Shown here one piece after another: positions 528 to 31,172 of a DNA stretch of 32,000 bases. The translations under genes were made by a program, and so were the position numbers. Source of the DNA: Massilicoli timonensis (GTDB lineage Bacteria; Bacillota_I; Bacilli_A; Erysipelotrichales; Erysipelotrichaceae); assembly GCF_900199515.1 (NCBI RefSeq), contig NZ_LT963434.1:1233272-1265271 (forward strand), read 5' to 3'. Positions within the stretch are counted from its first letter, which is position 1. Each line of letters begins with the position of its first letter. Below the pieces are notes generated by a model. The model was not told where the DNA came from. It worked only from the letters and a program-made list of their open reading frames with translations, and did no database searches.

Positions 528-668
528 CAAATAAAAACTGCCTTCCGATAAGAAGACAGTAGTGTCATTTAACTGTTTCTCTTATCGCTGTCAGCTTTAC
601 CACCTTGTAGATACAGGTTGGCGCGGGATCATCGAGCTGACTCTCTACTCCGACTCTTGATAATAGGC
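528..668 (-). promoter_or_regulatory. SAM-I (S-box) riboswitch with terminator expression platform in the metK leader
   Basis: Minus strand reads TTATCAAGAGTCGGAGTAGAGAGTCAGCTCGATGATCCCGCGCCAACC...AAGGTGGTAAAGCTGACAGCGATAAGAG. This matches the S-box core blocks (TTATCAAGAG, GAGNGA, ATGA, GCCAACC, GGTG.TAA, GATAAGAG). It is followed by CTGTCTTCTTATCGGAAGGCAG plus TTTTTATTT, a terminator whose 5' arm can alternatively pair with the P1 3' strand. Confidence 0.8.
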
Positions 669-2768: not shown

Positions 2769-4277
2769 TCAGATTTTCCACTCTATCTGAACATGGTCGC
2801 TGGTGGCCTTGATTGTAGAAATCAAGCCATCGGCGGCTTTTCTTTTGTCGTCAAAATCTATGCTCTCCCAGTTGTCAAGATAATAGGACAGTTTCTTTAT
2901 CTGCTGGGGCGATATGGTTTCGACGCTCAAATCGGCTATGACTTTTGAAATGGTCTGACTGCAGGTGTCCAGTTCTTCGATTTTCTTGTTGGCGTAGGCA
3001 AGCAAGGTCGCATTGGCTCCGGTCAGCGTGTCCAGCAGTTTTTCAATTTCTGCCTCCACCTGTGCCAGCTCTACTTGATAGGCTGTCAGCTTCGGATTGA
3101 CCTTTTCCTCTTTGCCGTGGAGTATCTGAAAATCTTTGAACTTCTCTTGCATGGCCGAGAAAATAAATTGCTCAAATTCTTCTTTGCGGATTTTCCCGCA
3201 GCCCGGACAACCTTTGTTTTCCGTCCGTTTGGTGCAGCGGAAATAGCCTGTGCTGTTTGGTACATGGGTGGCTTTCAGCGCATACCCACAATGCCCGCAT
3301 TTGATTTTTCCGGCCAGCCAAGTGTTTTTCGGTTTCCGCCCCTGCTGGAAGGTGGTATTTGCCATGAGCTTTTTCCGGCATTTCAGCCATGTGTCCGAGG
3401 GGATCAATGCTTCATGGGGAGCGATAACAAGTATCTGGTCTTTTAGGCACCTGTCCTTGTCCTCCTTCACATCCCGCCCCTGATAGAGATAACAGCCGTT
3501 TGTTCCGGCAAAATCGGAAGCGTCATTGACAATCGCTGCGCCCTGGCTCTTGAAAAACTCGTACAGTTCCAAGTCGGCCTGTGCGTAAACAGGGTTCCGT
3601 AAAAGCTGGGAAAGGAAACTCCGAACCATTGACTTTTCGTAAATCTTGATACCCTGTTCTTCAAAGTAGCGGGTAATGTCTCCGAAAGAGGTTTCCGGCT
3701 CGGCGTACATCTCAAACATCAGCCGTACATGGTCGGCGGCTACGGGGTCGGCAACCATCTTTTTTGTACGGATACCCTCTACCACGGTGGGCTCCAACTG
3801 ATAGCCGTATGGAGCCTGCCCGCTCATGTGAAAGCCTTTCAGGCACCGGGAATAGTAGGCGTCCGTGACGCGCTTCTGGATTGTCTCACGTTCAAGCTGG
3901 GCGAATACAATGCAGATATTCAGCATAGCCCGTCCCATCGGGGTCGAGGTATCAAACTTTTCCGTGGATGATACAAACTCTACATCGTACTCTTGAAACA
4001 GCTCCATCATATTTGCAAAGTCCAGAATAGAGCGGCTTATCCGGTCCAGCTTGTACACGATGACCCGCCGAACCTTTCCCTTGCGGATCTCGCCCAGCAG
4101 CTTTTGAAACTCCGGCCTGTCGGTATTCTTGCCGGAATAGCCTTTGTCCTTAAATACCCGGCAGCTCCCACCTTTCAATTCATACTTGCAGAAGTCAATC
4201 TGACTTTCAATGCTGATACTGTCCTTACGGTCTACTGACTGTCTCGCATAAATGCAATCTTCTCTGATAAATTCCAT
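2769..4277 (-). CDS. Large serine recombinase (ICE integrase/excisionase enzyme)
   Basis: ORF 2769-4313. The likely start is MEFIREDCIYARQSVDRKDSISIESQ at 4277, behind GGAAAGGAG. It has a resolvase catalytic N-terminus (YARQS), a recombinase domain, a Cys-rich zinc ribbon (CGHCGYAL..FRCTKRTENKGCPGC) and a C-terminal coiled coil. Confidence 0.9.
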   Translation of the reverse strand: MEFIREDCIYARQSVDRKDSISIESQIDFCKYELKGGSCRVFKDKGYSGKNTDRPEFQKLLGEIRKGKVRRVIVYKLDRISRSILDFANMMELFQEYDVEFVSSTEKFDTSTPMGRAMLNICIVFAQLERETIQKRVTDAYYSRCLKGFHMSGQAPYGYQLEPTVVEGIRTKKMVADPVAADHVRLMFEMYAEPETSFGDITRYFEEQGIKIYEKSMVRSFLSQLLRNPVYAQADLELYEFFKSQGAAIVNDASDFAGTNGCYLYQGRDVKEDKDRCLKDQILVIAPHEALIPSDTWLKCRKKLMANTTFQQGRKPKNTWLAGKIKCGHCGYALKATHVPNSTGYFRCTKRTENKGCPGCGKIRKEEFEQFIFSAMQEKFKDFQILHGKEEKVNPKLTAYQVELAQVEAEIEKLLDTLTGANATLLAYANKKIEELDTCSQTISKVIADLSVETISPQQIKKLSYYLDNWESIDFDDKRKAADGLISTIKATSDHVQIEWKI

Positions 4278-4325: not shown

Positions 4326-4385
4326 ATTATACTATCAGCAGCCCCGGACAACAATGTTGCGAATGGTTAGTGAAATCTGTCCCCG
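4326..4385 (-). promoter_or_regulatory. Putative recombinase promoter plus conserved 44-bp operator-like motif (copy A)
   Basis: Minus strand: GGGGACAGATTTCACTAACCATTCGCAACATTGTTGTCCGGGG, then a 17-nt spacing and TATAAT (4331-4326). The motif recurs at 16162-16206 with the same spacing to a TAAAAT box. Confidence 0.45.
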
Positions 4386-4543
4386 TACTTACTGAACACA
4401 TCGTAAAGACGGCGTTCAATTTCTTTTTTGCGCTGTTCCTTCTCCTTCGGGGAAAGTACCGGCGTGAGGCTTTCCAGCACAATGGTTTTCCCTTGAAAGG
4501 GTACAGACTTTGTTTCTCGTTGATATGTGACGGCCTGTGTCAT
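4367..4543 (-). CDS. Small conserved-looking protein (58 aa), possible recombination accessory factor
   Basis: Below the 60-aa cutoff of the ORF track. Own translation: MTQAVTYQRETKSVPFQGKTIVLESLTPVLSPKEKEQRKKEIERRLYDVFSKYGDRFH. A strong RBS AAGGAGG lies 7 nt before the ATG. It sits immediately upstream of the recombinase gene. Confidence 0.55.
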   Translation of the reverse strand: MTQAVTYQRETKSVPFQGKTIVLESLTPVLSPKEKEQRKKEIERRLYDVFSKYGDRFH

Positions 4544-4635: not shown

Positions 4636-4651
4636 CTTTGAGCTTTCTCCA

Positions 4652-4674
4652 CTTCGGGCCGATGTGGCCCGAGG
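4652..4674 (-). repeat. ICE hairpin repeat copy 1
   Basis: Plus strand CTTCGGGCCGATGTGGCCCGAGG. It abuts the TGA stop (4675-4677) of the upstream minus-strand CDS with a 0-nt gap. Confidence 0.9.
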
Positions 4675-4878
4675 TCAGTACGGACTGGAGTGGAACTTCT
4701 GTTTGGCGTCCTCCACGCTGTTGAGATCAAAGACTTCATAAAGCTGTCCCACAACACGACGAATATCCTTCTTTGAAAAGCCGCAGTCCTCCATTGCCAT
4801 GATGACATAGCCGCGGCAGGCATCGTTGCTCCATTCATCCGGCTCAAAACCGGGAAACATCCCAAACGCATTTTCCAT
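4675..4878 (-). CDS. Small hypothetical protein (67 aa)
   Basis: ORF 4675-4935. The likely start is MENAFGMFPGFEPDEW at 4878, 6 nt after AAGGAG. No recognisable motif. Confidence 0.55.
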   Translation of the reverse strand: MENAFGMFPGFEPDEWSNDACRGYVIMAMEDCGFSKKDIRRVVGQLYEVFDLNSVEDAKQKFHSSPY

Positions 4879-4894
4879 AAGAAACTCCTTTGAG

Positions 4895-4961
4895 AAAAAA
4901 GATGGGGAGCCCCGCCGGATTGGTTGGCCTATCATCAGACAGCATTGCCGGAGGGCTCCCC
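4895..4961 (-). terminator. Long GC hairpin plus T-run (terminator-like 3' end of the noncoding region)
   Basis: Minus strand GGGGAGCCCTCCGG...CCGGCGGGGCTCCCC (9+4 bp stem) followed by ATCTTTTTT. Confidence 0.5.
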
Positions 4962-5315
4962 ACAGGTTTTTACTACATTACAGACACACCGGACGGGCAT
5001 AGGCTTTCTGCCCCATAGTATTTCAACTCTCCCCATTCTGATGGCAAGGCGTTTTCATTGCCTGCGACGGCTCACGGCTTGCAAGGCCGCTTCAACGCTC
5101 GGACTGTGACTAAACGCAAGTATCCGGGTTATGTACCTGTTCCGGTGGAGCCAGCCTTGCCCCACCTATGGCATGAGCCTGATCGCTCGCCCTGTTTTAT
5201 AGAGACTGTATTCTCCAAAAGCAGAGGTCGTGGCGGGCCTGTCACACAGCGCATTTCCCTTCGTATCCGGGTGCCTTTTTATTCAGTTTTCGATTTGCAT
5301 GAGTGCTTGTCCGAA
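4895..5315 (-). ncRNA. Candidate structured noncoding RNA / long structured leader (unknown class)
   Basis: About 420 nt between hairpin copy 2 and the terminator-like hairpin, with no credible minus-strand ORF or RBS. It is GC-rich with many local complementary segments. The only track ORFs here are plus-strand shadows. Confidence 0.3.
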
Positions 5316-5338
5316 CCTCGGGCCACCTTGACCCGAAG
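5316..5338 (-). repeat. ICE hairpin repeat copy 2
   Basis: Plus strand CCTCGGGCCACCTTGACCCGAAG, about 50 nt 3' of the sigma-like gene stop. Confidence 0.85.
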
Positions 5339-5388
5339 TGTTTTGCCTCTCATAAGCCATTTCATTTTTTGGCCTAAATCGGTACACC

Positions 5389-5811
5389 TCACAAAGATTT
5401 TTTCAAAATTTTTTCCAAGTGCCGCAGCCCTCGCTCGATTGCCACACGGACTACTTTCTCATTGACCCCTTCTGCCCGGGCAATGTCCTGTTTCGTCATG
5501 CCAAGAATGAAGTGGGCGTAAATCCGTTTTGCCTGTTTGTCCGGCAAGCTGGCAATAGCAGCGTGAAGCTCCTGCATAGTAACTTTCCGCTCGTACAGTT
5601 CATGGGGCGTAAGTGCGACAAAGACAGCCTCATGCTCCAGCCCATCATCCCGATCAAGGGAATAGTAGGCTTTATGTCGGTATGTACGCAGCCGGTAAGC
5701 AGCCTCCTTGCGGTCAAATTCTTTGAACATTTCAGCAACTTCGTCCGATACTTCCATGAAGCAATCGGATGTATAAAACGGGTAGTAGTCCCGCAGATTG
5801 ATAATAGCCAT
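5389..5811 (-). CDS. Sigma-70 region-4 / HTH regulator (small ICE sigma-like factor, 140 aa)
   Basis: ORF 5389-5961. The likely start is MAIINLRDYYPFY at 5811, behind GGAGGTCAAT. The C-terminus LPDKQAKRIYAHFILGMTKQDIARAEGVNEKVVRVAIERGLRHLEKIL is a sigma-70 region-4 type HTH. Confidence 0.75.
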   Translation of the reverse strand: MAIINLRDYYPFYTSDCFMEVSDEVAEMFKEFDRKEAAYRLRTYRHKAYYSLDRDDGLEHEAVFVALTPHELYERKVTMQELHAAIASLPDKQAKRIYAHFILGMTKQDIARAEGVNEKVVRVAIERGLRHLEKILKKSL

Positions 5812-5884
5812 ATTGACCTCCGTTTCGGTTGGTGGTTGACAAGTGACCGAAACAGAGGCGGCGGGGAGCGGCACCGGGGAATGA

Positions 5885-5907
5885 CTTCGGGCCAACATGG
5901 CCCGAAG
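5885..5907 (-). repeat. ICE hairpin repeat copy 3
   Basis: Plus strand CTTCGGGCCAACATGGCCCGAAG (consensus), about 75 nt upstream of the sigma-like gene start. Confidence 0.9.
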
Positions 5908-6063
5908 CAGTCCCATAAGAACGCAAAAGCGCCCGGGCGGCACAAGGCCACTCGGACGCATGAAATGACATAGCAGTTAAGGTTCCAACAAATTTCACAT
6001 ACATAGCCGGAATAACCCGGAGGGGGAGCTATGCTTTTTTTAACTGATGCAGGTCATGGATAC

Positions 6064-6116: not shown

Positions 6117-6152
6117 GATTTACACGGTGTTAGGTCGTCGTTGGTTTAGGAT

Positions 6153-6194
6153 AAACGAAAAGAAACGGCGGCTCTGATTTCTCAAAACCGCCGT
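6153..6194 (-). terminator. Intrinsic terminator
   Basis: Minus strand ACGGCGG-N16-CCGCCGT followed by TTCTTTTCGTTT. Confidence 0.5.
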
Positions 6195-6297
6195 AAGGAT
6201 ATAGAGGTGTCATAAAAGCACAAGAAATTGTCTGCCCGTCAGCGGTTTTTTTCTTTCCTCCGCTGTGGAGGCAGATGTTTCTTATTGATTTACCACA

Positions 6298-6387
6298 AGC
6301 ATAAACTACAAATGTTACACAAATGTCCGAGGTGCCTTTGATTTCGACAGAAAAACAGGCTGAATTGTTACAAAGCTCGGACATTTC
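6298..6387 (-). promoter_or_regulatory. Orphan copy of the response-regulator-box promoter (copy 3)
   Basis: Plus strand AAATGTTACACAAATGTCCGAGG (6310-6332, direct AAATGT-N5-AAATGT) sits 6 nt from a TATGCT -10 (6298-6303, minus sense). An upstream inverted site GAATTGTTACAAAGCTCGGACATTTC lies at 6362-6387. The architecture matches 9595-9684. Confidence 0.4.
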
Positions 6388-6454
6388 AAAAAATATTTGA
6401 GAAATAGCAGAACCGGCAGGGTAGCATACGCCCCCCGCCGATCCCATACAGTTG

Positions 6455-8872
6455 CTATTCCGTTCTCAATCGATCCACCAAAGTATCTTTCTCAATGGAT
6501 CGGCTAACCCCATAGCTAATGCAAATCTGCAATCCGACGAGCAAAATGGAGAATAAAAGAATCGGGAATATATTAAACTCAAAAAGGATAAATTTCAGAG
6601 CCAATACCTTATTTGCCAAATAGCATAGCAAAGCACCTACTGTAACGCCCAAAAAGGTTGCCAATATTGCAGACTTTACACTAATGCTCATTCCCTCTCG
6701 GTAAAGCATTTTTCTTAGTTGTTGATTTGTCATTCCAACTGCCTGTAAAAGCGCAAATTCCCGTTTACGGACAATAGCGCTGCTGATTAGCATATTCACC
6801 ATATTTAATAGCCCGAAAAGAATTACAAATGCAGAGATACCATACAGACTGCTTGTGGTTGCCTTTATGAATCATCTAATTGTAGAAAATTCTTCATCGT
6901 AAATTTTGAGCCTCAAATTCGGATTTCCGCTTATAAGCGCCATGATCCCATCTTGAACAGCTTCCCTATAATCCGGGTCGCAAAAAACGGATAAATGTGA
7001 TGTATTATTATAAGGGGAAAGTTCTGCTATTGCTTCGCTGGTACAATAGAACAACCCTGTTGATGGGAAGTACGCAATCCCGGCAACGGTAAAAGTTTTT
7101 TCAATGTTTTTTCCGGAAACATCAAAATGGAATAATAGTGTATCTCCAATTTTCAGATCGCCATAGTTTGTATCACTTCGATCTGTACGGTATTTATTGA
7201 CAACTATGCCATCCAGACCGACTTCATCATAATTGATTGTACCGTCCACAAGTTCACTTGCATTAGCAACAAGTTCTGGTGATAGACTGTTTACAATTTC
7301 TAAATTGTCCTCTGGCGAATCGTAGACAACTTTTGATTCTACTAAGCGGCCCACGACACATCCATCCAATACAATCTTTTCTACGCCGGGAATTTTATAT
7401 ATTTGTGCCTGCAAATCCTCTGATAGAGGATTGTCTTGAATGATAGTCGGAAAACGCTCATAAAAGTTATCCATCTGTATGCCAATCTGGAAATCCTCGT
7501 CTAATGGATAGCTTTGTCGCAACATAGCCGGAAGATTGATGGAAGAAATAAGGATAGCTAATGCAATCATCAAGGTTCCACTAATACTCAATGAAATAAT
7601 TGACATACGGTTTTTCTTCTGATTCATTTTCAGGTTGCTTTGCGCCAAAGTATTTGGTGTAATCCGCTTCAATGTTTTGTGTCCTTGTCTGGCCTTTTCC
7701 CCTTGAAATTTCATTGCTTCAATAGGAGAAGTTTTGGCAAGAAGTTTCGCCGGCTTTCTCAAAGCGAACTTGATAACAGCAAAAATCAAGAAACCAGACA
7801 ATAAAACAATCGCCATGTCATATAAAAGCCATTGCACCCCGGAGAGAATAACTACAATCAAAATAGAAATCAATGCTCCCAAAGGGATAAACCGTAATGC
7901 CAGTAAATTCCCCTGCATTTTCAAAAAGTAACGCAACTGTTTTTTCGTCGTCCCTAATGAAATGAACTGGGCATACATCGGCATCGAATTGACAATGGAA
8001 ATATAAAAAATACTGTAAATTACAAAACTGCTGGCGAACATAATGAATATCGCAAAAAAGATAATACCGACCACCACAGCACCATCAATATAGATTCCAT
8101 CAATATATCTGTCATTTAATATGATGTCAAAATCTTCAATACCTTCGGCTTCGCCTTTACTTTTCAAAAAATCTTTTTGAGTGTCAGGACTCATATCGGC
8201 TTTTTCCGAATTAAGTGAAACTAATACATCAACCGTCGTAGCGGTTTGCGTGCTGTAAGTTAAAGAAAGCTCGCTGTACTGCTTTGCGTATTCTGTGCGG
8301 AAACGATCAGAGGTCAGAATATAAAACTGTTTTCCTTTTTCCTGTGTTTTGTTTTGGATAATGCCACAAACAGTAAATGTGTTTTCTTTCAATTCATTTG
8401 TCAAGGTGTCTACATATTCAAAGGAAAATGTATCACCTAATACCAATTTGTGAATAGACAGATAAGTTTCAGATACAAGTACCTCTGTGTTATTTTGCGG
8501 CAGGTTTCCATCCAGCAGTTCAAAGCCCAAAAGGGACATTGCCGGATCATCCATGTATGCCAGATCAGTGCGCCCATCATCGTTCACAATATTACCAAAA
8601 GTTTTGTAAACACCAACTGCTTCAAAATCATTATCGGTCTGTAACTTATTTTTCGTATCTTCGCTCACAGCGCGAAACATAGCATGATAAGGTGCTTGTG
8701 TGGATTGTTTCAGTGCGTCATTTACTAAAATCGAAAAGACGGTTGCCATTAGGCAAGTCGCAATTACAATAATAATTGCAGTGATTAAAGTCTTGAGCCT
8801 ATGTTCCTTTAGGTCAGCTTTCGCCAGTTTCTTTATAATAGTGCTGGTATCATTTTCAAAAGGCCATGTCAT
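6455..8872 (-). pseudogene. FtsX-family ABC permease (BceB/MacB-like, 805 codons) interrupted by a single in-frame TGA at 6872-6874
   Basis: ORFs 6872-8872 and 6455-6802 are in the same frame. The 69 nt between them read through cleanly (FIKATTSSLYGISAFVILFGLLNMVNMLISSAIVRKREFALLQAVGMT, an FtsX domain). The N-terminus has the typical TM1 plus large extracellular domain. Confidence 0.75.
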
Positions 8873-8886
8873 AGCCTGCCACCCCC

Positions 8887-9552
8887 TTACTCCACGATCT
8901 TGCCGTCCTCAATGCGGACAATCCGATCTGCAAGACGGGCAATGTCGTTGTTGTGGGTAATCATCACAACAGTTTGCCGGAACTCCGCGCTGGTACGCTT
9001 GATAAGCCCCAGCACCTCGGCGCTGGTCTTGCTGTCAAGGTTGCCGGTCGGCTCGTCGGCCAGCACAATAGCCGGTTTGGTAATTAGGGCGCGGGCAATC
9101 GCCACACGCTGCTGCTGGCCGCCAGAAAGATTGTTCGGCATATTTTTCAGTTTATCTTCCAGCCCCAGCAGGTGAACAATCTCGTCCAAAAACTTCTGAT
9201 CCACCGTATCCCCGTCCAGCTCCACCGGCAGGACAATGTTCTCATATACATTCAGGATGGGAACAAGGTTATAGTTCTGGAAGATAAAGCCGATGTTGCG
9301 GCGGCGGAAGATGGTAAGCTGTTCGTCGTTCATTTTCGACAGCTCTTTGTCCCGGACAATCACATTGCCGGAAGTGGGGGTGTCCAGCCCGCCCATCATG
9401 TGAAGCAGGGTGGACTTGCCGCTGCCAGAAGTTCCCACAACGGCCACAAACTCGCCGTCCTCCACGGAGAAGTTCACGCCGTCAAGGGCGCGGGTGATGT
9501 TCGGCTCTGTGCCGTAATACTTTTTCAGGTCAATCGTCTGTAAAACGCTCAT
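8887..9552 (-). CDS. ABC transporter ATP-binding protein (BceA/MacB-type)
   Basis: Start MSVLQTIDLKKYYG at 9552, behind AAAGGAG. Walker A GTSGSGKST, signature LSGGQQQRVAIARAL, Walker B VLADEPTGNLD. Confidence 0.9.
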   Translation of the reverse strand: MSVLQTIDLKKYYGTEPNITRALDGVNFSVEDGEFVAVVGTSGSGKSTLLHMMGGLDTPTSGNVIVRDKELSKMNDEQLTIFRRRNIGFIFQNYNLVPILNVYENIVLPVELDGDTVDQKFLDEIVHLLGLEDKLKNMPNNLSGGQQQRVAIARALITKPAIVLADEPTGNLDSKTSAEVLGLIKRTSAEFRQTVVMITHNNDIARLADRIVRIEDGKIVE

Positions 9553-9594
9553 ATTCAAAACTCCTTTCAAGGCTTCCTGCCTGTTGATAAGGCT

Positions 9595-9684
9595 ATTGTA
9601 AAACCCAAATGTCCGCGAAATGTTACAGCGGCCAAAAAATTTCATTGAAAATCGGGGTGAAATGTTACAACGCTCGGACATTTC
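9595..9684 (-). promoter_or_regulatory. Response-regulator-box promoter of the ABC operon (copy 1)
   Basis: AAATGTCCGCGAAATGTTACAGCGG (9607-9631) lies 6 nt from a TACAAT -10 (9595-9600, minus sense). The inverted site GAAATGTTACAACGCTCGGACATTTC is at 9659-9684. The 25-mer is identical to 11496-11520. Confidence 0.5.
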
Positions 9685-9698
9685 ATTTTATTTCTGCA

Positions 9699-9721
9699 CT
9701 TCGGGCCAACTTGACCCGAAG
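9699..9721 (-). repeat. ICE hairpin repeat copy 4
   Basis: Plus strand CTTCGGGCCAACTTGACCCGAAG, 13 nt after the histidine kinase TGA stop. Confidence 0.85.
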
Positions 9722-9734
9722 TAGAAAGTTCCTC

Positions 9735-10766
9735 TCAACGCAAAGGAAGCATAATGGAAAATTCCGAACCCTTACCTGGCTCCGAAACCACTTTGATATA
9801 GCCGCCCTGCCGCGTTACGATCTCGCGGGCCAGATACAGGCCAATACCCACGCCCTGCTGTTCGTGTACTTCTTCCTCACGATAGAAGCGCCGAAAGATG
9901 GCGGCCTGATTGCTTTCGGAAATGCCCTTGCCAGTGTCGGCTACTTTGATTTCTACATACATTTCCCACAGCACCACCGACACCGTGATTTTCCCGCCTG
10001 CCGGGGTGTACTTTACTGCATTATCCAGCAGATTAAAGAGGGCTTCGGATGTCCACTTGCTGTCATGGGAGAGGGTGAGATCTTCCGGGCAGTCCACGGA
10101 CACAGCGATTTGTTTTTTCTCCGCTGCATACACGATTCCGCTCATGGCCTGCGCCACGGTATCAAATAGACGGCCCGGCTTCTTATCCAACTGAATCACA
10201 CCCGTTTCCAACCGGGAGGTTTTCACAAGGGCTTGAAAAAGAAAGTCCAGCTTATCCGTCTGGCTGCGGATTCCACGGATAAAATCGGTGCGCTCCGCCT
10301 CGGTCATTGGCTTTTCCAGCAGGGTGTCCGTTGCCATTTTCAGGTTACTTACCGGCGTTTTCACTTGATGGGAAATATCTGATACAAGGGTCTGTAGCTC
10401 CTGCCGTTCCTCGTCCACCCGGCGGCGGTTCTCCTGCATGATCTGGTAAAGCCTTGTCAGCCGGTGTCCGATTCTGGCAAGCTGGGTTTCGCTGTCCTCC
10501 GGGCGCTGGGGTGCTTCATTTCCGGCAATCATGTGGTCTAAGGTCTGGCACAGGTCAGCGGTAAACTGCGACAGCCGCTTTCCAAACACCTGTGTCAGTA
10601 CAAAAATTCCCACAAGGGCGCACAGTAGCAGCGCCCCGCCCGTCAACAGCACCGCCGTCTGTTTTGTCACAAGAAACAGAGCTATGGTGATCCCGGACAT
10701 GGAGAGGACAAGCCCTATTACCACCCGGCCAAACAGCCGCTTTACCGAGAGGTTTTGAAACTTCAT
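9735..10766 (-). CDS. Intramembrane-sensing histidine kinase (BceS-like)
   Basis: Likely start MKFQNLSVKRLF at 10766, overlapping the regulator stop (AAATGAAG). It has two N-terminal TM helices with almost no loop. H-box SDISHQVKTPVSNL and ATPase motifs NLLDNAVKYT, DTGKGI, GVGIGLYLA. Confidence 0.9.
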   Translation of the reverse strand: MKFQNLSVKRLFGRVVIGLVLSMSGITIALFLVTKQTAVLLTGGALLLCALVGIFVLTQVFGKRLSQFTADLCQTLDHMIAGNEAPQRPEDSETQLARIGHRLTRLYQIMQENRRRVDEERQELQTLVSDISHQVKTPVSNLKMATDTLLEKPMTEAERTDFIRGIRSQTDKLDFLFQALVKTSRLETGVIQLDKKPGRLFDTVAQAMSGIVYAAEKKQIAVSVDCPEDLTLSHDSKWTSEALFNLLDNAVKYTPAGGKITVSVVLWEMYVEIKVADTGKGISESNQAAIFRRFYREEEVHEQQGVGIGLYLAREIVTRQGGYIKVVSEPGKGSEFSIMLPLR

Positions 10767-11455
10767 TTTGCCTCGCCTCCCGTCCATTGATAGCCCATGC
10801 CGTAAACGGTCTTAATGTAGGGTGCGCCGCCGTCGGATTCAATCTTGCTGCGAATCCGGCTGATGGAGGTTGTCAGGGTATGTTCGTCTACAAACCTCTC
10901 GTCTATATCCCACAACTTTTCCAAAAGCTGCCCACGGGTCAGCACTTGCCGGGGATTTTTACGGAACAGGTTCAGCATTTTGTACTCCATCGGGGATAGG
11001 GACAGAGGCTTGCCGTTTAAGGAAGCCGTCTGCTCCGAGAAGTCCAGAAACAGCCGCCCGTCGTCGTAAATGTCCTTGGCCGGTTTGTGGTGTTCCAGCA
11101 TGGCGAACATAGCTTTGATTTTCCGCTGCAAGGTCCCGATCACAAAGGGCTTTGTGATGTAGTCCACCGCGCCCACCTCATAGCCTCGTATCTGGTCGCT
11201 CTCCTGATCGTTAGCGGTCAGGAAGATTACAATGGTGTCTGGGTGCTGGGGCTTTATCAGCTTGCACAGCTCAAAACCGTTCCCGTCCGGCAGGTTAATG
11301 TCCAGCAGCACCAAATCAAATTCTCGCTGTCGGATGGCGTCGGCTGCGGTTCTGGCGTTTAGGACAGAAGTCACGCCGTAGCCGTCTACGGTCAGGTTAT
11401 AGGCCAACATCTTATTCAAAAAACTGTCGTCCTCGACAATTAAAATCTGCTTCAT
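10763..11455 (-). CDS. OmpR-family response regulator (BceR-like)
   Basis: Start MKQILIVEDD at 11455, behind AAAGGAAGTGAGG. Receiver domain (DLVLLDINLPDGNG) plus winged-helix output domain (LSPMEYKMLNLF...VDEHTLTTSISRIRSKI). Confidence 0.9.
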   Translation of the reverse strand: MKQILIVEDDSFLNKMLAYNLTVDGYGVTSVLNARTAADAIRQREFDLVLLDINLPDGNGFELCKLIKPQHPDTIVIFLTANDQESDQIRGYEVGAVDYITKPFVIGTLQRKIKAMFAMLEHHKPAKDIYDDGRLFLDFSEQTASLNGKPLSLSPMEYKMLNLFRKNPRQVLTRGQLLEKLWDIDERFVDEHTLTTSISRIRSKIESDGGAPYIKTVYGMGYQWTGGEAK

Positions 11456-11483
11456 ATCCTCACTTCCTTTGCTTTTTGCAGAT

Positions 11484-11520
11484 AGTATAACAGGCAAATG
11501 TCCGCGAAATGTTACAGCGG
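11484..11520 (-). promoter_or_regulatory. Response-regulator-box promoter of the two-component operon (copy 2)
   Basis: AAATGTCCGCGAAATGTTACAGCGG (11496-11520) lies 6 nt from a TATACT -10 (11484-11489, minus sense). Confidence 0.45.
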
Positions 11521-11562
11521 ACGGATTTTTTCAAAAAATCTATCAGCAAAATATAGCTCTAT

Positions 11563-11609
11563 TAAAAAAGCAGCACCAAAGAAGATATTTTCATATCCCC
11601 CCGGTGCTG
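11563..11609 (-). terminator. Probable terminator of the GntR-ABC operon
   Basis: Minus strand CAGCACC-N25-GGTGCTG followed by CTTTTTTAAT. The loop is large. Confidence 0.4.
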
Positions 11610-11617
11610 TTTATATA

Positions 11618-11740
11618 TTATTTCAGCTTATCCTTATTATCTTCTTGTTTCTTTTTATCCCGATATTTCCGTATGAGTTTATTACGGATAGGAACGCCAA
11701 CGCCAATCAGAAGAACTACCGCTAAAATTGTGAAATCCAT
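11618..11740 (-). CDS. Small single-pass membrane peptide (40 aa)
   Basis: MDFTILAVVLLIGVGVPIRNKLIRKYRDKKKQEDNKDKLK. Strong RBS GAGGTGA 5 nt before the ATG. It follows the ABC-2 permease directly. Confidence 0.5.
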   Translation of the reverse strand: MDFTILAVVLLIGVGVPIRNKLIRKYRDKKKQEDNKDKLK

Positions 11741-11750
11741 ATTGCTCACC

Positions 11751-12398
11751 TCACATTTCTTTATTTTCCATAATCCGAATGGAGAACCAGATCGACACAA
11801 CATACATGACAACGACGAGTACAAGCACAAGACCGATCAGCAGTACCGGGGAACTTACAACCGTAGTCACAAAGGGATTGTCTGCGGGCATCTTGGGCAG
11901 GAAAAACAAGGTCGCCAAAAATCCAGCCACAGGAATATACATGAACACACGGCCTTTAATGGCTCCATATTTGTAATAGCCCGGAATTTGAAATACGGTA
12001 TAGAGGGCAAACAGGAACAAACCGCCAATGGCCGCACTGATCATATCAAATGCTCCAACACTTTCACCCATTGCGCGCAGCACAATCGGCTGTGTGATAA
12101 GAGAAACCACCAGAGCCATCGCGCCCAGCGCAAGAACAAAGAGATACCGGCCTGTTACCATTTCGCTTTTCTTGATGGGTAAAATCCCATACAAACGCTC
12201 CATGCTGTTTTTCTCTGTTACCGAGAAAGTGTAGCCTGTGGTCATGGCGATAAAGCACATGGCAAATGAAACGCCGGTCAGGATGGAACGGTTAATGGCC
12301 GCAAAAGCGATAGGAAGAAGCATGGTAAACCCGATTACCTTGATATAGGGCTTTACCAGCGAAAAGTCCAATTTTGTTGCTTTTAATGTATTACTCAT
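11751..12398 (-). CDS. ABC-2 type transporter permease
   Basis: Likely start MSNTLKATKLDFSL at 12398, overlapping the ATPase stop (TATGAGTAA). Six predicted hydrophobic helices. Confidence 0.8.
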   Translation of the reverse strand: MSNTLKATKLDFSLVKPYIKVIGFTMLLPIAFAAINRSILTGVSFAMCFIAMTTGYTFSVTEKNSMERLYGILPIKKSEMVTGRYLFVLALGAMALVVSLITQPIVLRAMGESVGAFDMISAAIGGLFLFALYTVFQIPGYYKYGAIKGRVFMYIPVAGFLATLFFLPKMPADNPFVTTVVSSPVLLIGLVLVLVVVMYVVSIWFSIRIMENKEM

Positions 12399-13251
12399 AA
12401 TCGTCACCTTTCTTGCTCGTGAATACAACGATTTCATCAATGGTCGCCGGTTCAATGCTCAAAGGGGAAAAAGCGCCCGTATCTTCGGTCTTGACAAGAG
12501 CCTCAAAGCCCGTAGGGAATGTACGGACACCGACCGCTTTTTCCTTCAGGTCAGCAGACAGTTCTTCTGTTCCTCCTTTGACAATGCGGAACATATCGAC
12601 AAATTCATCCTTGCTGCCGCTGAAAAACAATTCTCCATAGCTGATATAAGTGATATAGTCCGCAGCGCGTTCCAGATCGCCGGTAATATGGGTGGAGAAC
12701 AGTACACTGTGTTCTCCGTCCTCGATATATTCCGAGAGAATTTGAAGCAGTTCATCTCTGGAAACCGGATCGAGGCCGCTGGTGGGTTCGTCCAGGATCA
12801 GCAGCTTTGCATCGTAAGAGAACGCACAGGCCAGCATCAACTTCATCTGCATCCCCTTTGAGAGTTCTTTCACTTTCTTGGTGGGAGCAATATGGAACTT
12901 CCGCAGCATCTCGGCAAACCGTTCCGACTTCCAGTTGGGATAGAAAACGGAGATGGATTTCTCTACTTGTGTTACCTGCCAATCATCGCTGAAATAGTTG
13001 GTATCAAATACAACACCGAGTTCCGCTTTTGCTTTCTGCTCGTCAGCGATATTATCCAGCCCCATGATCTTGATTTCGCCGCCGTTGCGCTGGAGCATAT
13101 TCAGAATGAGTTTGATAGTGGTTGTCTTGCCGGAGCCATTTGGCCCGATCAGCCCCATAATATATCCCTTTGGCAAAGTGAAGCTGATGTTGTGAAGCTG
13201 GAAACTGTCAAAGGATTTCGAGAGGTTTTTAACCTCTAAATAGTTAGTCAT
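12391..13251 (-). CDS. ABC transporter ATP-binding protein
   Basis: Walker A GPNGSGKTT, signature LSKGMQMKL, Walker B LILDEPTSGLD. Its start overlaps the GntR stop. Confidence 0.9.
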   Translation of the reverse strand: MTNYLEVKNLSKSFDSFQLHNISFTLPKGYIMGLIGPNGSGKTTTIKLILNMLQRNGGEIKIMGLDNIADEQKAKAELGVVFDTNYFSDDWQVTQVEKSISVFYPNWKSERFAEMLRKFHIAPTKKVKELSKGMQMKLMLACAFSYDAKLLILDEPTSGLDPVSRDELLQILSEYIEDGEHSVLFSTHITGDLERAADYITYISYGELFFSGSKDEFVDMFRIVKGGTEELSADLKEKAVGVRTFPTGFEALVKTEDTGAFSPLSIEPATIDEIVVFTSKKGDDYE

Positions 13252-13627
13252 CTGTATTCGCCTCCAATAAAATATCTAAAAGACGGTGCAGTTCCTCATT
13301 TGGAAGATTTGCTATTTTTGCCGCCTTGATTGCATCGGTCAACCCATTTTCTACTTTGCAGATAAGTTGCTCTCTCATTAGTTCAGAGCCACGGCCCATG
13401 ACAAAGCAGCCGCGCCCCTGGACATTTTTGACAAATCCCTCTTGCTCTAATTCTGTGTAAGCCCGTGTAACTGTTAGGACGCTGATTTTCAAATCTTTTG
13501 CCAGCGTTCGGAGGGAAGGTAAGGCTTCGTCCTCTTTCAGTTCTCCAGATAGGATTGCCGCCTTGACCTGCTGCTTAATTTGCTCGTAGATGGGTACGCC
13601 TGATACATTTGAAATAATTAGTTTCAA
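13244..13627 (-). CDS. GntR-family (YtrA-like, short) transcriptional regulator
   Basis: 127 aa. Winged HTH LPSLRTLAKDLKISVLTVTRAYTELEQEGFV. It is the first gene of a GntR-ABC-ABC2 operon. Confidence 0.9.
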   Translation of the reverse strand: MKLIISNVSGVPIYEQIKQQVKAAILSGELKEDEALPSLRTLAKDLKISVLTVTRAYTELEQEGFVKNVQGRGCFVMGRGSELMREQLICKVENGLTDAIKAAKIANLPNEELHRLLDILLEANTDD

Positions 13628-13795: not shown

Positions 13796-14161
13796 ATGAG
13801 AATGAACCAAGATGAAAGAAGGTTTGACTTTCACGGGCTCGGGCTGGCTCTGAAACAAGCCAGAGAGGAAAAGGGCTGGACGCAAGCCTATGTGGCGGAG
13901 CTGGTCGGCAAGACTGACCGCACCATTATGAACATTGAGAACAAAGGCCAGCACCCCAGCTTCAACCTGTTTTTCAAACTCGTCACTCTGTTCGATATTT
14001 CCGTAGATCAGTTTTTCTATACAGAAGGTCAGCGTGGAGAGAACAGTTGCAGAAAGCATATTGATGTGCTTTTAAGCTCGATGAATGAGAAAGAGCTTGT
14101 TGTTATGGAGGCCACAGCCGAAGGGCTCAAGAAAGCCAGAGAAACGGAGGTTCAAGAGTAA
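13796..14161 (+). CDS. XRE-family HTH regulator
   Basis: 121 aa. HTH_3 pattern LKQAREEKGWTQAYVAELVGKTDRTIMNIENKGQHPSFNLFFKLV. Divergent from the GntR operon. Confidence 0.85.
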   Translation: MRMNQDERRFDFHGLGLALKQAREEKGWTQAYVAELVGKTDRTIMNIENKGQHPSFNLFFKLVTLFDISVDQFFYTEGQRGENSCRKHIDVLLSSMNEKELVVMEATAEGLKKARETEVQE

Positions 14162-14329: not shown

Positions 14330-15745
14330 TCAACGCTCCTTTTCCTGCTTTCTGCCCGGCTCGGTGTAGCCCAGCAGAGTATCAATATTTACCTTGATGG
14401 TGACGATCTCCTGCATATCCCGGCGCGCTTTCTGATACTCTCCATAAAGGCGCTTTTTCTTTGCCGTGAGCTTACGGCTTTCCTCCTTCAGCGCATCCAT
14501 TTTCGGGAGCTTCGCCCCGCCCAGCAGACGGCGCATTTCCGCCTGTGCCGCCCGGTACAGTTCAATATCGGCCTCATGCTCCGCAAGGAATTTCCGGCTG
14601 TACTTGGTAGCCTTGTACTGCTCAAAGACCGAGCGCGTTTTTGCATACTGAACCGTTGCGGCCTTTAGCCCGGCGTTGGTTTTCATGGCCTGTTCCGTCT
14701 GCTTGATCTGCTCGGAAAGCGCATGGAAATGGTCGGTTGCCTCGGTGGCTTTCTGCGCCAACTGCTCATAATCAGTCAGGCCGTTGTCCTGTATATAGGC
14801 AAGGGCGGCGGCCATCTGCTTGATGTTGAACACCTTCGCCCACCGCTCGTAGCCCGGCCCCTTTCCGGCAGCCAGCTTTGCTTGAATATCCACCGCCAGA
14901 CTGATTTTTCGCTCCGGGCGTCCGGGGCGTTTTTCTTTGCCCTCAATGGCGGCAAGAACATCTTTCAGATCGTAGCCGTCCCCAAGCGTAGAGGCCCGCA
15001 GACGGGTAAAGCGTTCCTGCCCCTGGCCGGTCAGCCGGAAGCTGATACCACCGCCCCGAACCTTCTTGACTTCATATCCGGCGCGCTTCATCAGGCCGAG
15101 AAATTCGTCCAGATCGGCGGGGCGCTCCGCCAGCGCAGTATCAATGGCAAGGCGCAGCCGGTCCTGATACGAAAGCGGCCCTTTCCGTTCTTTCTGCCAC
15201 TCCCCATAGTTCCGGTATTTTCCCTTGCTCCGGGGCTTCGGGTTCTCTACAATAGACAGCCCGTTTTCAAGGCACAGTCTGTCGGAGAGCCGCCGGAGGG
15301 CGAAGCTGGAGCCCCAGAAGTTTCGGAATTTCCGGGTGCAGTCAAGGGTGGTGGAGTTGTAATAGATGTGACAATGGATGTGCTGGCGGTCTGTGTGCGT
15401 GGTAACGATAAAAGCGTGCCGCCCCTTCGTCCAGCGCATAGCCAGCTCATAGCCGATACGGTTCGCCTCCTTCGGGGTGATCTCTCCCGGATAAAAGGAC
15501 TGTCGTATTTGATAGCACAGCACATCATTGGCCTTTTTCTGTTCCCGGCCTGTCATGGCGGCATAGCTGGCTTTCGCCAAAAGAAACTCGTCCGCCACGG
15601 TGGCAGGGTCGCACTCATAAGCGGAGATATACTTTCCGCTTTCTGTTTTTTCCGGGTTTTTACCATAGTCCAGACAATCCCGGATGGCCTCGGCAATCGT
15701 TTCTCCTTCGCCCGCATGGCGCTGCAACAAAGTTGTGGTAGCCAG
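14330..15745 (-). CDS. MOB-type relaxase (MobA/VirD2 relaxase domain)
   Basis: The histidine triad region HTDRQHIHCHIYYNS is followed by a long coiled-coil C-terminus. The track ORF starts at TTG 15730. A well-spaced RBS AGGGAGGG sits 7 nt before a CTG at 15745, giving (M)ATTTLLQRH. No in-frame ATG or GTG is available. Confidence 0.85.
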   Translation of the reverse strand: MATTTLLQRHAGEGETIAEAIRDCLDYGKNPEKTESGKYISAYECDPATVADEFLLAKASYAAMTGREQKKANDVLCYQIRQSFYPGEITPKEANRIGYELAMRWTKGRHAFIVTTHTDRQHIHCHIYYNSTTLDCTRKFRNFWGSSFALRRLSDRLCLENGLSIVENPKPRSKGKYRNYGEWQKERKGPLSYQDRLRLAIDTALAERPADLDEFLGLMKRAGYEVKKVRGGGISFRLTGQGQERFTRLRASTLGDGYDLKDVLAAIEGKEKRPGRPERKISLAVDIQAKLAAGKGPGYERWAKVFNIKQMAAALAYIQDNGLTDYEQLAQKATEATDHFHALSEQIKQTEQAMKTNAGLKAATVQYAKTRSVFEQYKATKYSRKFLAEHEADIELYRAAQAEMRRLLGGAKLPKMDALKEESRKLTAKKKRLYGEYQKARRDMQEIVTIKVNIDTLLGYTEPGRKQEKER

Positions 15746-15766: not shown

Positions 15767-15795
15767 AAAAAAGGGCGGCCCGTCCAGACCGCCCC
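15767..15795 (-). terminator. Intrinsic terminator-like hairpin between hairpin copy 6 and the relaxase RBS
   Basis: Minus strand GGGGCGG-N9-GCCGCCC followed by TTTTTT. Confidence 0.5.
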
Positions 15796-15797
15796 GA

Positions 15798-15820
15798 CTT
15801 CGGGCCAACATGGCCCGAGG
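15798..15820 (-). repeat. ICE hairpin repeat copy 6
   Basis: Plus strand CTTCGGGCCAACATGGCCCGAGG, 4 nt after the TAA stop at 15825-15827. Confidence 0.9.
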
Positions 15821-15824
15821 CTGT

Positions 15825-23231: not shown

Positions 23232-23254
23232 CTTCGGGCCAGCATGGCCCGAAG
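23232..23254 (-). repeat. ICE hairpin repeat copy 11
   Basis: Plus strand CTTCGGGCCAGCATGGCCCGAAG. It lies in the open frame upstream of the hydrolase ATG and reads ASGHAGPK. Confidence 0.9.
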
Positions 23255-23429
23255 CGCCGGTCTGCCCGGTATCCTCGTCCTCAAACCGCAGGCGTCGGGA
23301 CGGTGCGGGGGAAGGTCCTTCCCGGTCAGCCGGTCCGGGGCGAGTGCTCCCGGTATCCTCCGGCGGCCCCGGCCTTTGAAAATTCCGTTTATCCGGTTTC
23401 TTTCCGATGATGTATCCCTCCTTTCCGAA

Positions 23430-27581: not shown

Positions 27582-28448
27582 TTAATGGCAGCCGAAGATG
27601 GATTTTGCAAGGCTGCCCGTTTTGAACAGGGTAAAACACAGCAGCACCGTATAGCCCACACAGCCCCAGATCGCCCCGATGGGGTCGCCGTCGGTGGCGA
27701 TACTCTGGATAAGCACCGCATAGATAGCGACACAGACCAAAATGAGCAAGCCTTGAAAGCCCACCGCAAAGAGGGAGCGGAAATAGTTCTGCCCCATGTG
27801 TCCGGTTTCCCGGTTGGGGACGGTGGCAAACGGGATGGGTGCCAAACTTGTGAGTAAGTAAATTTCAATCATACGGCCATATACGATCACGAAGATCACG
27901 ATGTTTAAGGCAATCATGGTAAGCTGAATCAGGAATGACTGGAGCCAGAGGCCAAACAGGGGACCTAACTCCATTGCCTCCAGCTCGGTCCGCAGACTGT
28001 CCATTACATCCGTTGTGATCTCTGTCCCGTTCTGGATAATGCCCGCCGATTGCTGGATGACGTGCTGGCTCACGTCAAAGACGGCCAGCACGATATTGAA
28101 GGTATTCGTCAGGATTATTACCGCCACAAAGGTTTTGAACACCCACTTGAAAAACATCCATGTGTCAACGTCATGGAGGTTGTTGCGGTCAATGAGCATT
28201 TGTATCAGCTCATAGGTCATTACAAAAGTGAGGATGACCCCGGCGATTGGCAGGATGGCGGTTTCAGAGATTTGCCGTATCATGGAAAAGACCCCGGCGT
28301 TCCAGTCCGCCGGGGTCGTGCCTACCTGTGTGGCGATCTCGCCAACGCTCTGATTGACGTTATTGAAAAGGCCATCCAGATTTCCCATGATACCATCGAC
28401 AAGCAAACCTTTGAGCCATTCAACGATTGCGTCGATGATAAAGTCCAT
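27582..28448 (-). CDS. Multi-pass T4SS membrane protein (VirB6-like)
   Basis: 288 aa with about 6 hydrophobic helices. RBS AAAGGAG. It sits between the Maff2-like gene and the VirB4 cluster. Confidence 0.7.
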   Translation of the reverse strand: MDFIIDAIVEWLKGLLVDGIMGNLDGLFNNVNQSVGEIATQVGTTPADWNAGVFSMIRQISETAILPIAGVILTFVMTYELIQMLIDRNNLHDVDTWMFFKWVFKTFVAVIILTNTFNIVLAVFDVSQHVIQQSAGIIQNGTEITTDVMDSLRTELEAMELGPLFGLWLQSFLIQLTMIALNIVIFVIVYGRMIEIYLLTSLAPIPFATVPNRETGHMGQNYFRSLFAVGFQGLLILVCVAIYAVLIQSIATDGDPIGAIWGCVGYTVLLCFTLFKTGSLAKSIFGCH

Positions 28449-28489
28449 ACATCAGCTCCTTTTCTGGAAAAAGGGACAACGGGTAAGGG

Positions 28490-28705
28490 TTAGCTGAACA
28501 GGCCGGACAGCAGAGGGATAAGCTGCATACCGATCAGGACGACACCGCCGCCCGCCATGAGCTGCTTAATGCCCTGGCTCTTTGCCGCGGGGTTGTCGGA
28601 CCCGTAACCTTCCAGCAGGTTGATGACGCCCCACACCGCCAGACCAGCGCCCAGCGCCATGACCAGAATCTTGAGAATGTCGATAGCAGAGTTGAAAAAT
28701 TCCAT
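28490..28705 (-). CDS. Small two-TM membrane protein (Maff2-like)
   Basis: Likely start MEFFNSAIDILKILVMALGAGLAVWGVINLLEGYGSDNP at 28705, 7 nt after GGAGG. Confidence 0.65.
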   Translation of the reverse strand: MEFFNSAIDILKILVMALGAGLAVWGVINLLEGYGSDNPAAKSQGIKQLMAGGGVVLIGMQLIPLLSGLFS

Positions 28706-28741
28706 ATACGTTCCTCCATTTTGTTTTTTGGTTTTGGGTAC

Positions 28742-28766
28742 AAAAAAAGCCGCCCACATTGGCGGC
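28742..28766 (-). terminator. Intrinsic terminator after hairpin copy 16
   Basis: Minus strand GCCGCC-AATGTG-GGCGGC followed by TTTTTTT. Confidence 0.65.
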
Positions 28767-28767
28767 G

Positions 28768-28790
28768 CTTCGGGCCATCATGGCCCGAAG
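28768..28790 (-). repeat. ICE hairpin repeat copy 16
   Basis: Plus strand CTTCGGGCCATCATGGCCCGAAG. It abuts the VirD4 TAA stop (28791-28793) with a 0-nt gap. Confidence 0.9.
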
Positions 28791-30614: not shown

Positions 30615-31081
30615 CGTCCGTCCTTCACCGCCTCTCTGGTCCGCTGCTTCTCCTTCGGCTTCGTCCTGATCTGCTCCGTGAGCTTTCGGAGCTGGCCGAG
30701 GATAGAAGTCTTGTCCTGGTCTTTGTTCAGCACCTTTGTACTGTATTTCTGGAAGGCCGCCGTGATGGCGTCCGCCTGATTGGATTTGAAGAACAGCAGG
30801 TAATGGCCGGGGCTCACTTTATGGAAAGCGTAGTCCACATGGAACTCCTTCGCTATCCGGTCAAAATCCTTCGGCGCGCCCACATACTGCATGGCGTTTT
30901 TGCCGCCGTAGTGGTTCATCAGCTTCTTCACGCTCTGGCGGCCCTGCGGGGTCAGCGCCTTCCGGTGGTGCTTTTGCAGCGCCCGAACCACCTTGCCAAG
31001 AGCGGCGGCCAGCACTTTTCCCGTCAGCTTTGCCGTCTTGATCGAAAGGGCAACTGTTTTTTGGTTTACTTCTTCCTGCAT
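30611..31081 (-). CDS. PcfB-like conjugation protein
   Basis: 156 aa. MQEEVNQKTVALSIKTAKLTGKVLAAAL...DYAFHKVSPGHYLLFFKSNQADAI resembles PcfB/DUF3801 proteins that precede coupling proteins. RBS AAAGGAGG. Confidence 0.7.
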   Translation of the reverse strand: MQEEVNQKTVALSIKTAKLTGKVLAAALGKVVRALQKHHRKALTPQGRQSVKKLMNHYGGKNAMQYVGAPKDFDRIAKEFHVDYAFHKVSPGHYLLFFKSNQADAITAAFQKYSTKVLNKDQDKTSILGQLRKLTEQIRTKPKEKQRTREAVKDGR

Positions 31082-31148
31082 AAAACCTCCTTTCCGTCAG
31101 GGCTCCCGGTAGACGGGAGGCCCCCGTACACTCCGGGGCAACAGAAAA

Positions 31149-31171
31149 CCTCGGGCCAATGTGGCCCGAGG
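31149..31171 (-). repeat. ICE hairpin repeat copy 17
   Basis: Plus strand CCTCGGGCCAATGTGGCCCGAGG (perfect 9-bp arms), 1 nt after the TAA stop at 31173-31175. Confidence 0.9.
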
Positions 31172-31172
31172 C

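Follow-up and report, generated by a model that had tools for sequence, protein, structure and literature searches.

Two copies of one promoter, probably switched by one factor, precede the recombinase and the DUF5699/relaxase genes of a Tn1549-kind integrative conjugative element

The window analysed here, a 32,000-nt stretch of the Massilicoli timonensis contig NZ_LT963434.1, includes an end of a Tn1549-kind integrative conjugative element (ICE), whose genes lie on the minus strand. Closely similar DNA precedes the large serine recombinase gene of this element and the gene for a small DUF5699 membrane protein, which is followed by the relaxase gene (Table 1). A sequence-only reading of the window had noticed a duplicated stretch of 44 bp at these two places, and the duplication was borne out: positions 4346-4390 and 16167-16211 share 80% identity over 45 nt, ungapped, on the same strand and with an offset of 11,821 nt. 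The 22-nt core, AATGTTGCGAANNNTTAGTGAA, has exactly two matches in the window, even when three mismatches are allowed, where 0.01 would be expected from shuffled sequences, and in the 32 kb a profile based on 24 distinct instances yields these two sites alone (E 1e-13 to 1e-22). A third or degenerate copy was not found in the window, the next profile match having an E-value of about 0.5. The extent of 44 bp was too short, as the likeness continues into the -10/+1 region (TAnAATAnAGnT), and the whole module measures about 75 bp, from roughly -65 to +10.

Read in the gene (minus) sense, both copies, A before the recombinase gene and B before the DUF5699 gene, consist of GGGACAG-N2-TTCAC-TAA-N4-TCGCAACATT, followed by 21 nt, a -10 hexamer of the form TAnAAT, a ribosome-binding site (RBS) and a start codon. 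When the -10 is placed at -12 to -7, GGACAG falls at -63 to -58, TTCAC at -55 to -51 and TCGCAACATT at -43 to -34. This upstream part, the box, holds a TTCAC/TTCGC direct repeat one helical turn apart. The -35 and -10 hexamers and the 17-nt spacers that had been claimed for both copies are present as described. The -10 expected of a sigma-A (sigma-70) promoter, near TATAAT, is found in both; copy B has TAAAAT (16152-16147) with TGG before it, an extended -10 (TGn), TGGTAAAAT, which many variants of copy A in relatives also have (TGGTATAAT), and copy A of the window has TAGTATAAT. The upstream end of copy A runs into p58, a conserved gene of 58 aa found on more than 1000 contigs, and covers its last five codons and its TAA stop. 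Downstream of copy A, the recombinase starts at the ATG given in Table 1 and not at a TTG at 4313.

Relatives of the module are common. A genome scan for the core, with the -10 left unspecified in the pattern, returned 33 loci (numbered here with an L), about 30 of which are genuine and three are evident chance matches without the flanking blocks; the genuine loci come from Lachnospiraceae, Oscillospiraceae, Gemmiger, Agathobaculum, Flavonifractor and Ruminococcus. Cultured strains are among the carriers, for example Faecalicatena contorta JCM 6483, Agathobaculum butyriciproducens DSM 100391, Gemmiger formicilis ATCC 27749 and Clostridium fessum SNUG30386. Scans of IMG/VR gave 5 and 20 loci and a metagenome scan gave at least 120 contigs. 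The matches listed include about 190 instances of the two modules, from gut Clostridia. In type A the module comes after a small open reading frame (ORF) and before a large serine recombinase (MEFIREDCIYA...), and in type B it comes after variable DNA and before the DUF5699 membrane protein (MKILLKILVAPFA...) and then the relaxase. All instances with a readable downstream gene belong to one of these two types except L030, including 20 of the 20 IMG/VR loci and, again among the matches listed, 124 of 124 instances in 120 metagenome contigs. The module also stands before other genes: in L019 a serine recombinase of 813 aa that is unrelated, in L035 a second recombinase and in L030 cargo genes that form a response-regulator/kinase/ABC operon. 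In every genuine ICE locus of the genome scan that is not cut at the locus end, the distance from the core to TAnAAT is 21 nt (20 nt in L019), and in these loci the module always points toward the downstream gene, whose RBS and start codon then follow.

The sequence-only reading had also proposed conservation in related ICEs as a check, and both copies are indeed kept together in related elements at equivalent positions. At least ten elements (L015, L039, L041-43, L045, L082, L115, L129 and L131) carry both types, on the same strand, and both are also found on the contig pairs L014+L036 and L020+L028; in the cargo-free elements L015 and L039 the two lie 5.5 kb apart. Two relatives which were found through their DUF5699 homologs, without the DNA pattern (L041 and L045), keep GGACAG, CTAA, TCGCAACATT, the 21-nt distance and the -10, while TTCAC varies (TTCGC, TTTAC, TTCCC) and the 3' arm is lost in one of them. 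TAnAAT is retained in all relatives, including these pattern-independent ones. L172 (gene-sense 9640-9765) has no p58 and a different serine recombinase of 522 aa, 23% identical; its recombinase promoter has the stripped form GCAACATT-N21-TATAAT only, and its copy B before DUF5699 is intact. The motif is absent from Tn1549 and from a Subdoligranulum plasmid (relaxase 52% identical, sigma-like protein 52%); a GGGACAAAGTGTCCC hairpin in this plasmid was examined as a possible box and rejected as a variant of the REP-like hairpin described below. The duplication, its anatomy, the fixed geometry, the conservation and the restriction to two gene contexts are all observed directly in these sequences.

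The pattern of variation indicates what has been conserved. Between type A and type B paralogs, identity reaches 84% within the 32-nt box and is about 48% for the remaining module (spacer, -10 and start region); outside the box, the -10 region is conserved again. Sequence comparison groups A copies with A and B copies with B, which makes the pair an old duplicate kept by selection and not a recent copy or the product of gene conversion. Within an element, the two copies gave no sign of concerted evolution. The module is less variable than neighbouring third codon positions, both among 58 distinct sequences of type A, where this applies to promoter and leader, and among 56 of type B. In type B the upstream flank cannot be aligned as far as GGGACAG, since the cargo or REP hairpins that occupy it differ. 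Small ORFs upstream of type A copies (e.g. L019:313-498, L041:11605-11781 and the IMG/VR loci L046-L061), even where unrelated in sequence, share the ending F-(H/P/R/Y)-stop, its codons being supplied by the DNA motif TTYNCTAA. On this evidence the constrained object at the ends of these small ORFs is the DNA and not a protein.

The combination of a strong -10 with a weak -35, and with a conserved block that is not A/T-rich and abuts the -35, leads to the reading of a factor-dependent promoter. From this anatomy and from the conservation we infer that transcription would start at the modules and that a factor would bind the box. The interpretation we favour, with a probability of roughly 0.6, is that both copies are sigma-A promoters sharing one factor-binding box. 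The host housekeeping RNA polymerase would read each module of about 75 bp, which offers a near-consensus, often extended -10 (TAnAAT), a poor -35 and, abutting the -35 upstream, a box of 31-32 nt with the consensus GGACAG-N2-TTYNC-TAA-N4-TCGCAACATT. One sequence-specific DNA-binding factor on the box would offset the poor match of the -35, in the manner of a class II/class I activator, and the synthesis of recombinase (promoter A) and of DUF5699/relaxase (promoter B) would be switched together. For the shared operator that had been suggested, a position of about -64 to -34, abutting a weak -35, is the place of an activator site and not of a classical repressor operator.

The link from promoter B to the relaxase is less direct than had been supposed. 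An intrinsic terminator after the mobC gene lies just upstream of copy B, and DUF5699 and the relaxase therefore need a promoter of their own. However, a terminator-like hairpin also stands between the DUF5699 and relaxase genes, so that relaxase expression from promoter B needs read-through. The hairpin is kept as a structure in L041, L172 and L039 with different stem sequences, and it is a possible attenuator of relaxase expression; in the proposed mechanism, relaxase output would additionally require read-through of this conserved terminator past DUF5699. The anatomy and direction of both promoters are as the sequence-only reading had them, and its "relaxase operon" holds only if the terminator is read through. 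In the window and also in L039 and L041, the relaxase itself has an apparent CTG start 8 nt past its RBS, GGGAGGG; ATG is found there in L172.

The sigma-like and XRE proteins of the element had been named as candidate readers of the box. Our leading candidate, a guess that is less likely than not, is the 140-aa protein with a sigma region 4 fold. Its gene and orf67 are found in every complete related element examined, and its C-terminal 60 residues superpose on the -35-binding domains of extracytoplasmic function (ECF) sigma factors and on KorA at about 2 Å. No sigma region 2 is recognisable in the 140 aa, within a weak AlphaFold model (predicted local distance difference test score, pLDDT, 62). 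The protein was therefore not taken as a demonstrated sigma factor, and its reading as a full one was rejected, only the sigma-4 part matching solved structures. A REP hairpin fills the supposed N-terminal extension of a longer sigma-like ORF, and the protein was taken as 140 aa. The XRE regulator is weakened as a reader because its gene is missing from L041, which keeps both copies. The p58 protein is also unlikely, as L172 keeps an intact copy B without p58.

Several points weigh against two factor-dependent sigma-A promoters and against this candidate. Both -35 hexamers match TTGACA at just 3 of 6 positions, which falls short of a sigma-A -35, and because of these poor hexamers a plain consensus promoter scanner reports neither promoter. 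Copy B, with its extended -10, might fire without any factor. The terminator past DUF5699 weakens the direct link between promoter B and the relaxase. The low confidence of the structural model of the sigma-like protein has to be counted here as well, and a search of the window found no copy of the box at the promoter of the sigma-like gene itself, in contrast to Tn916 with its autoregulated Porf7. Finally, among the few diverged elements compared, the two copies were not seen to change in concert with any regulator.

The duplicated promoter could also be constitutive, without a dedicated regulator, the upstream block serving as an UP-like element or as the site of a general host factor such as Spo0A. 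The near-consensus -10 boxes, the extended TGn -10 of copy B, the many hosts across Lachnospiraceae and Oscillospiraceae, the module of L030 in front of cargo genes and the recombinase of L172, which keeps just the stripped form, would all suit such a promoter. However, the upstream block is not A/T-rich as an UP element would be, and 32 nt retained between old paralogs at 84%, compared with about 48% downstream of the box, argues for sequence-specific recognition. For Spo0A, the reverse 0A box has the consensus TTCGNCA, which TTCGCAA matches at 6 of 7 positions, but this match is imperfect and the invariant CAACATT reaches past it. We consider a constitutive promoter unlikely. The box might instead contain a promoter for an ICE-specific ECF-like sigma factor, in tandem with the sigma-A promoter, its -35 being GGGACAG and its -10, at a distance of about 15 nt, TCGCAAC; this appears improbable. 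GGACAG and TCGCAAC are the two most invariant blocks, the sigma-like gene is always present, and words such as GCAAC or the like of GGAAC are usual for ECF -35 elements. Against this, the 140-aa protein shows a sigma-4-like domain only, the supposed spacer (TTCAC-TAA) is itself conserved in the non-coding type B copies, and the fixed distance of 21 nt to TAnAAT would be left unexplained.

Copy B was also considered as an origin of transfer (oriT) or relaxosome-binding site. It has mobC on one side and the relaxase genes shortly downstream on the other, and no clear oriT was seen upstream of mobC in this ICE lineage. Like the MOBP oriT nick regions (RP4, Ti borders, Tn1549), it adjoins mob genes and has ATCCTG on the plus strand (16195-16200), where GTGAATCCTG/TCCCGG resembles the nick core YATCCTG/Y. 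The hexamer is not conserved, however, some type B copies having ATCCTG and the others AACCTG, AATCTG, AACGTG or ATCCCG, and it occurs at chance frequency in the window (18 found, 15.6 expected). The conserved part lies elsewhere (TCGCAACATT), a second copy stands at the recombinase gene, and the fixed distance to the -10 and fixed orientation toward the gene are not expected of an oriT. The Tn1549 region of pMG2200 upstream of mobC, where the Tn1549 oriT reportedly lies (Tsvetkova et al. 2010), has no match. An oriT nick site was therefore rejected as very improbable. A binding or accessory site of the large serine recombinase, for autoregulation or as an attachment (att) pseudo-site of about 40 bp with inverted ends, would fit the length of the motif, the outer arms GGACA/TGTCC, the position of copy A beside the recombinase gene and the modules near other serine recombinases (L019, L035). 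Yet the ICE end, placed at about 2703 (region ~2703-2770; about 65 nt past the recombinase stop) because homology with eight loci from different hosts stops there, has an att arm (~2703-2735; TTGTACCCCTTGTACACCGATGCTT) that shares nothing with the motif, and copy B is unchanged in L172 despite the 23%-identical recombinase. The core is asymmetric, and the symmetric outer arms, which the sequence-only reading had seen as bracketing the motif, are only 5-6 bp long and are lost in L041 type B, L035 and L019. The att-like site was rejected on these grounds as hardly credible. The arms GGGACA...TGTCCC, present in both window copies, might otherwise form a hairpin in RNA or DNA (terminator, processing site or single-strand promoter), but they would enclose a loop of about 27-30 nt and fold no better than shuffled sequences on either strand (z -1.23 to +1.05; +0.19 and -1.23 for the two copies), without compensatory arm changes having been seen or an Rfam match having been found. 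With the arms not kept in all relatives either, a hairpin is extremely improbable and was rejected, and the arms are not essential.

Between the sigma-like gene and orf67, on the minus strand, lies a conserved non-coding region of about 450 nt within the non-coding DNA of Table 1. It has constant length and 75-98% identity in all relatives. An alignment of 12 sequences gave a consensus structure of 110 pairs in which 96% of the cells are paired, and 19 pairs show compensatory changes, compared with 11.5 +/- 1.9 in shuffles (0 of 500 reach 19) and 3-8 with slid partners. The region ends in a hairpin and T-run at about 4961-4895, just before orf67, and no Rfam match was found for it even at E <= 1. 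In size and place, and by these alone, it can be likened to canT of Tn916 (452 nt, PMC11658703). With 17 REP-like hairpins and terminators between the ICE genes, a processive antiterminator would make sense here. Perhaps the promoters and this region belong to a two-step timer, in which the 140-aa protein, made only from an upstream transcript carrying the canT-like antiterminator RNA, would fire the recombinase and DUF5699/relaxase promoters; we regard this as quite unlikely. In such a timer the protein, without region 2, would replace the -35 contact by binding TCGCAACATT (-43 to -34) and the upstream blocks, and would hand exactly two promoters to the host sigma-A polymerase, antiterminated read-through coming first and factor-dependent firing of both promoters second. 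In a further version the same factor would also render the polymerase resistant to the terminator between DUF5699 and the relaxase gene. The 140-aa protein has faint Q-like matches. The non-coding region may merit more attention than the promoter pair.

The closest working analogue of the two proposed sigma-A promoters with a common box is the SetCD box of SXT/R391 ICEs, a 19-bp site which adjoins poor -35 sequences in the promoters of xis, int and tra (PMC4344509). As with SetCD (SXT/R391) and AcaCD (IncA/C), a conserved box abuts or overlaps a poor -35 and is repeated at recombination and DNA-processing promoters, and in the window it does so at a fixed distance, in gene orientation, within the same element. 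In both systems variable DNA is inserted right beside one of the boxes. For SetCD, binding and transcription starts were established by chromatin immunoprecipitation-exonuclease (ChIP-exo) and rapid amplification of cDNA ends (5'-RACE) (PMC4344509). The sequence and the host phylum differ, about ten boxes are found there and two copies here, and binding and starts were measured there whereas the module here is known from its sequence. FlhC or FlhD domains, which activators of the FlhDC family such as SetCD and AcaCD would show, were not found in Pfam scans of 30 window ORFs up to position 27539, the ORFs at 27582-32000 lying outside the scan.

In gene layout, Tn916 is the closest known system. 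Its order is the Orf9 repressor, the sigma-like Orf7 and Orf8 as activators of Porf7, the 452-nt canT RNA and xis-int, and the sigma-like protein is thought to activate an ICE promoter leading to recombinase expression (PMC5812530, PMC11658703). The window similarly has an opposite-strand helix-turn-helix (HTH) regulator, a small sigma-like protein, a non-coding RNA region of about 450 nt and recombination genes, and the 140-aa protein can be likened by place and type to Orf7 as its positional counterpart. In Tn916, however, the target promoter is upstream of orf7 itself, whereas no box copy stands at the sigma-like gene here, and the recombinase is a tyrosine enzyme there and a serine enzyme here, where the relaxase is of the MobA/VirD2 type. 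The KorA/KorB operators of IncP plasmids (RK2/RP4) provide another case of one short site repeated at several promoters of a conjugative element, which a single plasmid protein thereby coordinates, and the 140-aa protein has a C-terminal HTH that superposes on KorA. The KorA operators are 12-bp palindromes at the -10 and are repressor sites, while the box here lacks such symmetry, spans about 32 nt and is found upstream of the -35. We found no published account of the motif or of regulation in this ICE lineage.

Table 1. Positions in the window of the two modules and of the other features discussed in the text.
Feature	Position	Strand	Remarks
Upstream box, copy A	4353-4384	-	GGGGACAGATTTCACTAACCATTCGCAACATT; about -64 to -34
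Core promoter A	4326-4354	-	-35 TTGTTG 4354-4349; 17-nt spacer; -10 TATAAT 4331-4326
Upstream box, copy B	16174-16204	-	GGGACAGGATTCACTAATCTTTCGCAACATT; homology with relatives begins exactly at GGACAG
Core promoter B	16147-16175	-	-35 TTTATG 16175-16170; 17-nt spacer; extended -10 TGGTAAAAT 16155-16147
Large serine recombinase	2769-4277	-	502 aa from ATG 4277; Resolvase, Recombinase and Zn_ribbon_recom domains; RBS AAGGAG 4289-4284
Conserved 58-aa gene (p58)	4367-4543	-	TAA stop 4367-4369; ends F-H-stop
orf67 (67-aa gene)	4675-4878	-	
Non-coding DNA, about 510 nt	4879-5388		between orf67 and sigma-like gene
140-aa sigma-like gene	5389-5811	-	Sigma70_r4_2; sigma region 4-type HTH
Cargo	6130-13627		ABC transporters, two-component system, GntR regulator
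XRE-family regulator	13796-14161	+	DBD_HTH domain
MobA/VirD2-type relaxase	14330-15745	-	probable CTG start 15745-15743
Terminator-like GC hairpin and T-run	15772-15795	-	between DUF5699 stop and relaxase start
DUF5699 small membrane protein	15825-16118	-	97 aa; RBS AAGGAGG 16130-16124; first gene past promoter B
Low-GC HNH-like insert gene	16292-17128	+	278 aa; weak HNH_2 match
Intrinsic terminator after NikA/MobC gene	17135-17167	-	
NikA/MobC	17171-17512	-	
REP-like palindrome, examples	4651-4676, 5315-5340, 5884-5909, 15797-15822, 16208-16233, 19856-19881, 23231-23256		

The remaining features of the window concern mainly repeats and insertions. The REP-like GC-rich palindrome, CTTCGGGCCAACATGGCCCGAAG, has 17 sites in the window, between most ICE genes, and may serve to stabilise RNA, to terminate transcription or as a target of insertions; copy B has one such palindrome directly on its upstream side. 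In many relatives this side of copy B is a hot spot for cargo. In the window, an insertion at 16234-17128, between the mobC terminator and the REP hairpin, brought the HNH-like gene with a consensus promoter of its own (16237-16265), and L039 is without this insertion. L039 also lacks the IS110-family transposase gene (18477-19727), which is inserted beside the REP-like hairpin at 19856-19881, between a Cys-rich VLP gene and DarA_C. Beyond NikA/MobC, the order is DarA_C, the IS110 copy and then type IV secretion genes up to the window end.

At 19890-19950 on the minus strand, upstream of the DarA_C/DUF4316/MobC genes, a perfect 11-bp inverted repeat, CCGGGGCGGGA...TCCCGCCCCGG, is followed by TTTACTCCCTCATTTCGTAACATACC; it is kept in L039, and from its sequence it is a candidate oriT of the ICE lineage. 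A TTTCGTAACAT word beside this repeat resembles the box by eye and gained no score in the search. Another repeat, AAATGTCCGCGAAATGTTACAGCGG, is found at 6362-6386, 9594-9644, 9659-9683 and 11483-11533, upstream of the cargo ABC and response-regulator operons. These repeats are probably boxes for the cargo two-component regulator, unrelated to the module although AATGTT is common to both. To the left of the ICE end lies host DNA with LytTR and LiaF-TM genes and a SAM riboswitch (579-666, minus strand).

Taken together, the window most plausibly holds two copies of one promoter that are probably switched by one factor, and one shared box at recombinase and DNA-processing promoters is an arrangement already known from other conjugative elements. 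Tn1549-related serine-recombinase elements are very common in human and animal gut Clostridia, and they carry resistance cargo, such as ABC transporter/two-component modules. A box common to exactly the recombinase and DNA-processing promoters gives a testable handle on the switch to excision and transfer, both as a reporter target and as a bait for the regulator, and GGACAG-N2-TTYNC-TAA-N4-TCGCAACATT-N21-TAnAAT can serve as an annotation signature for this ICE family. If the interpretation is true, the activator-box logic of the proteobacterial SXT/IncC elements would also be at work in ICEs of Firmicutes.

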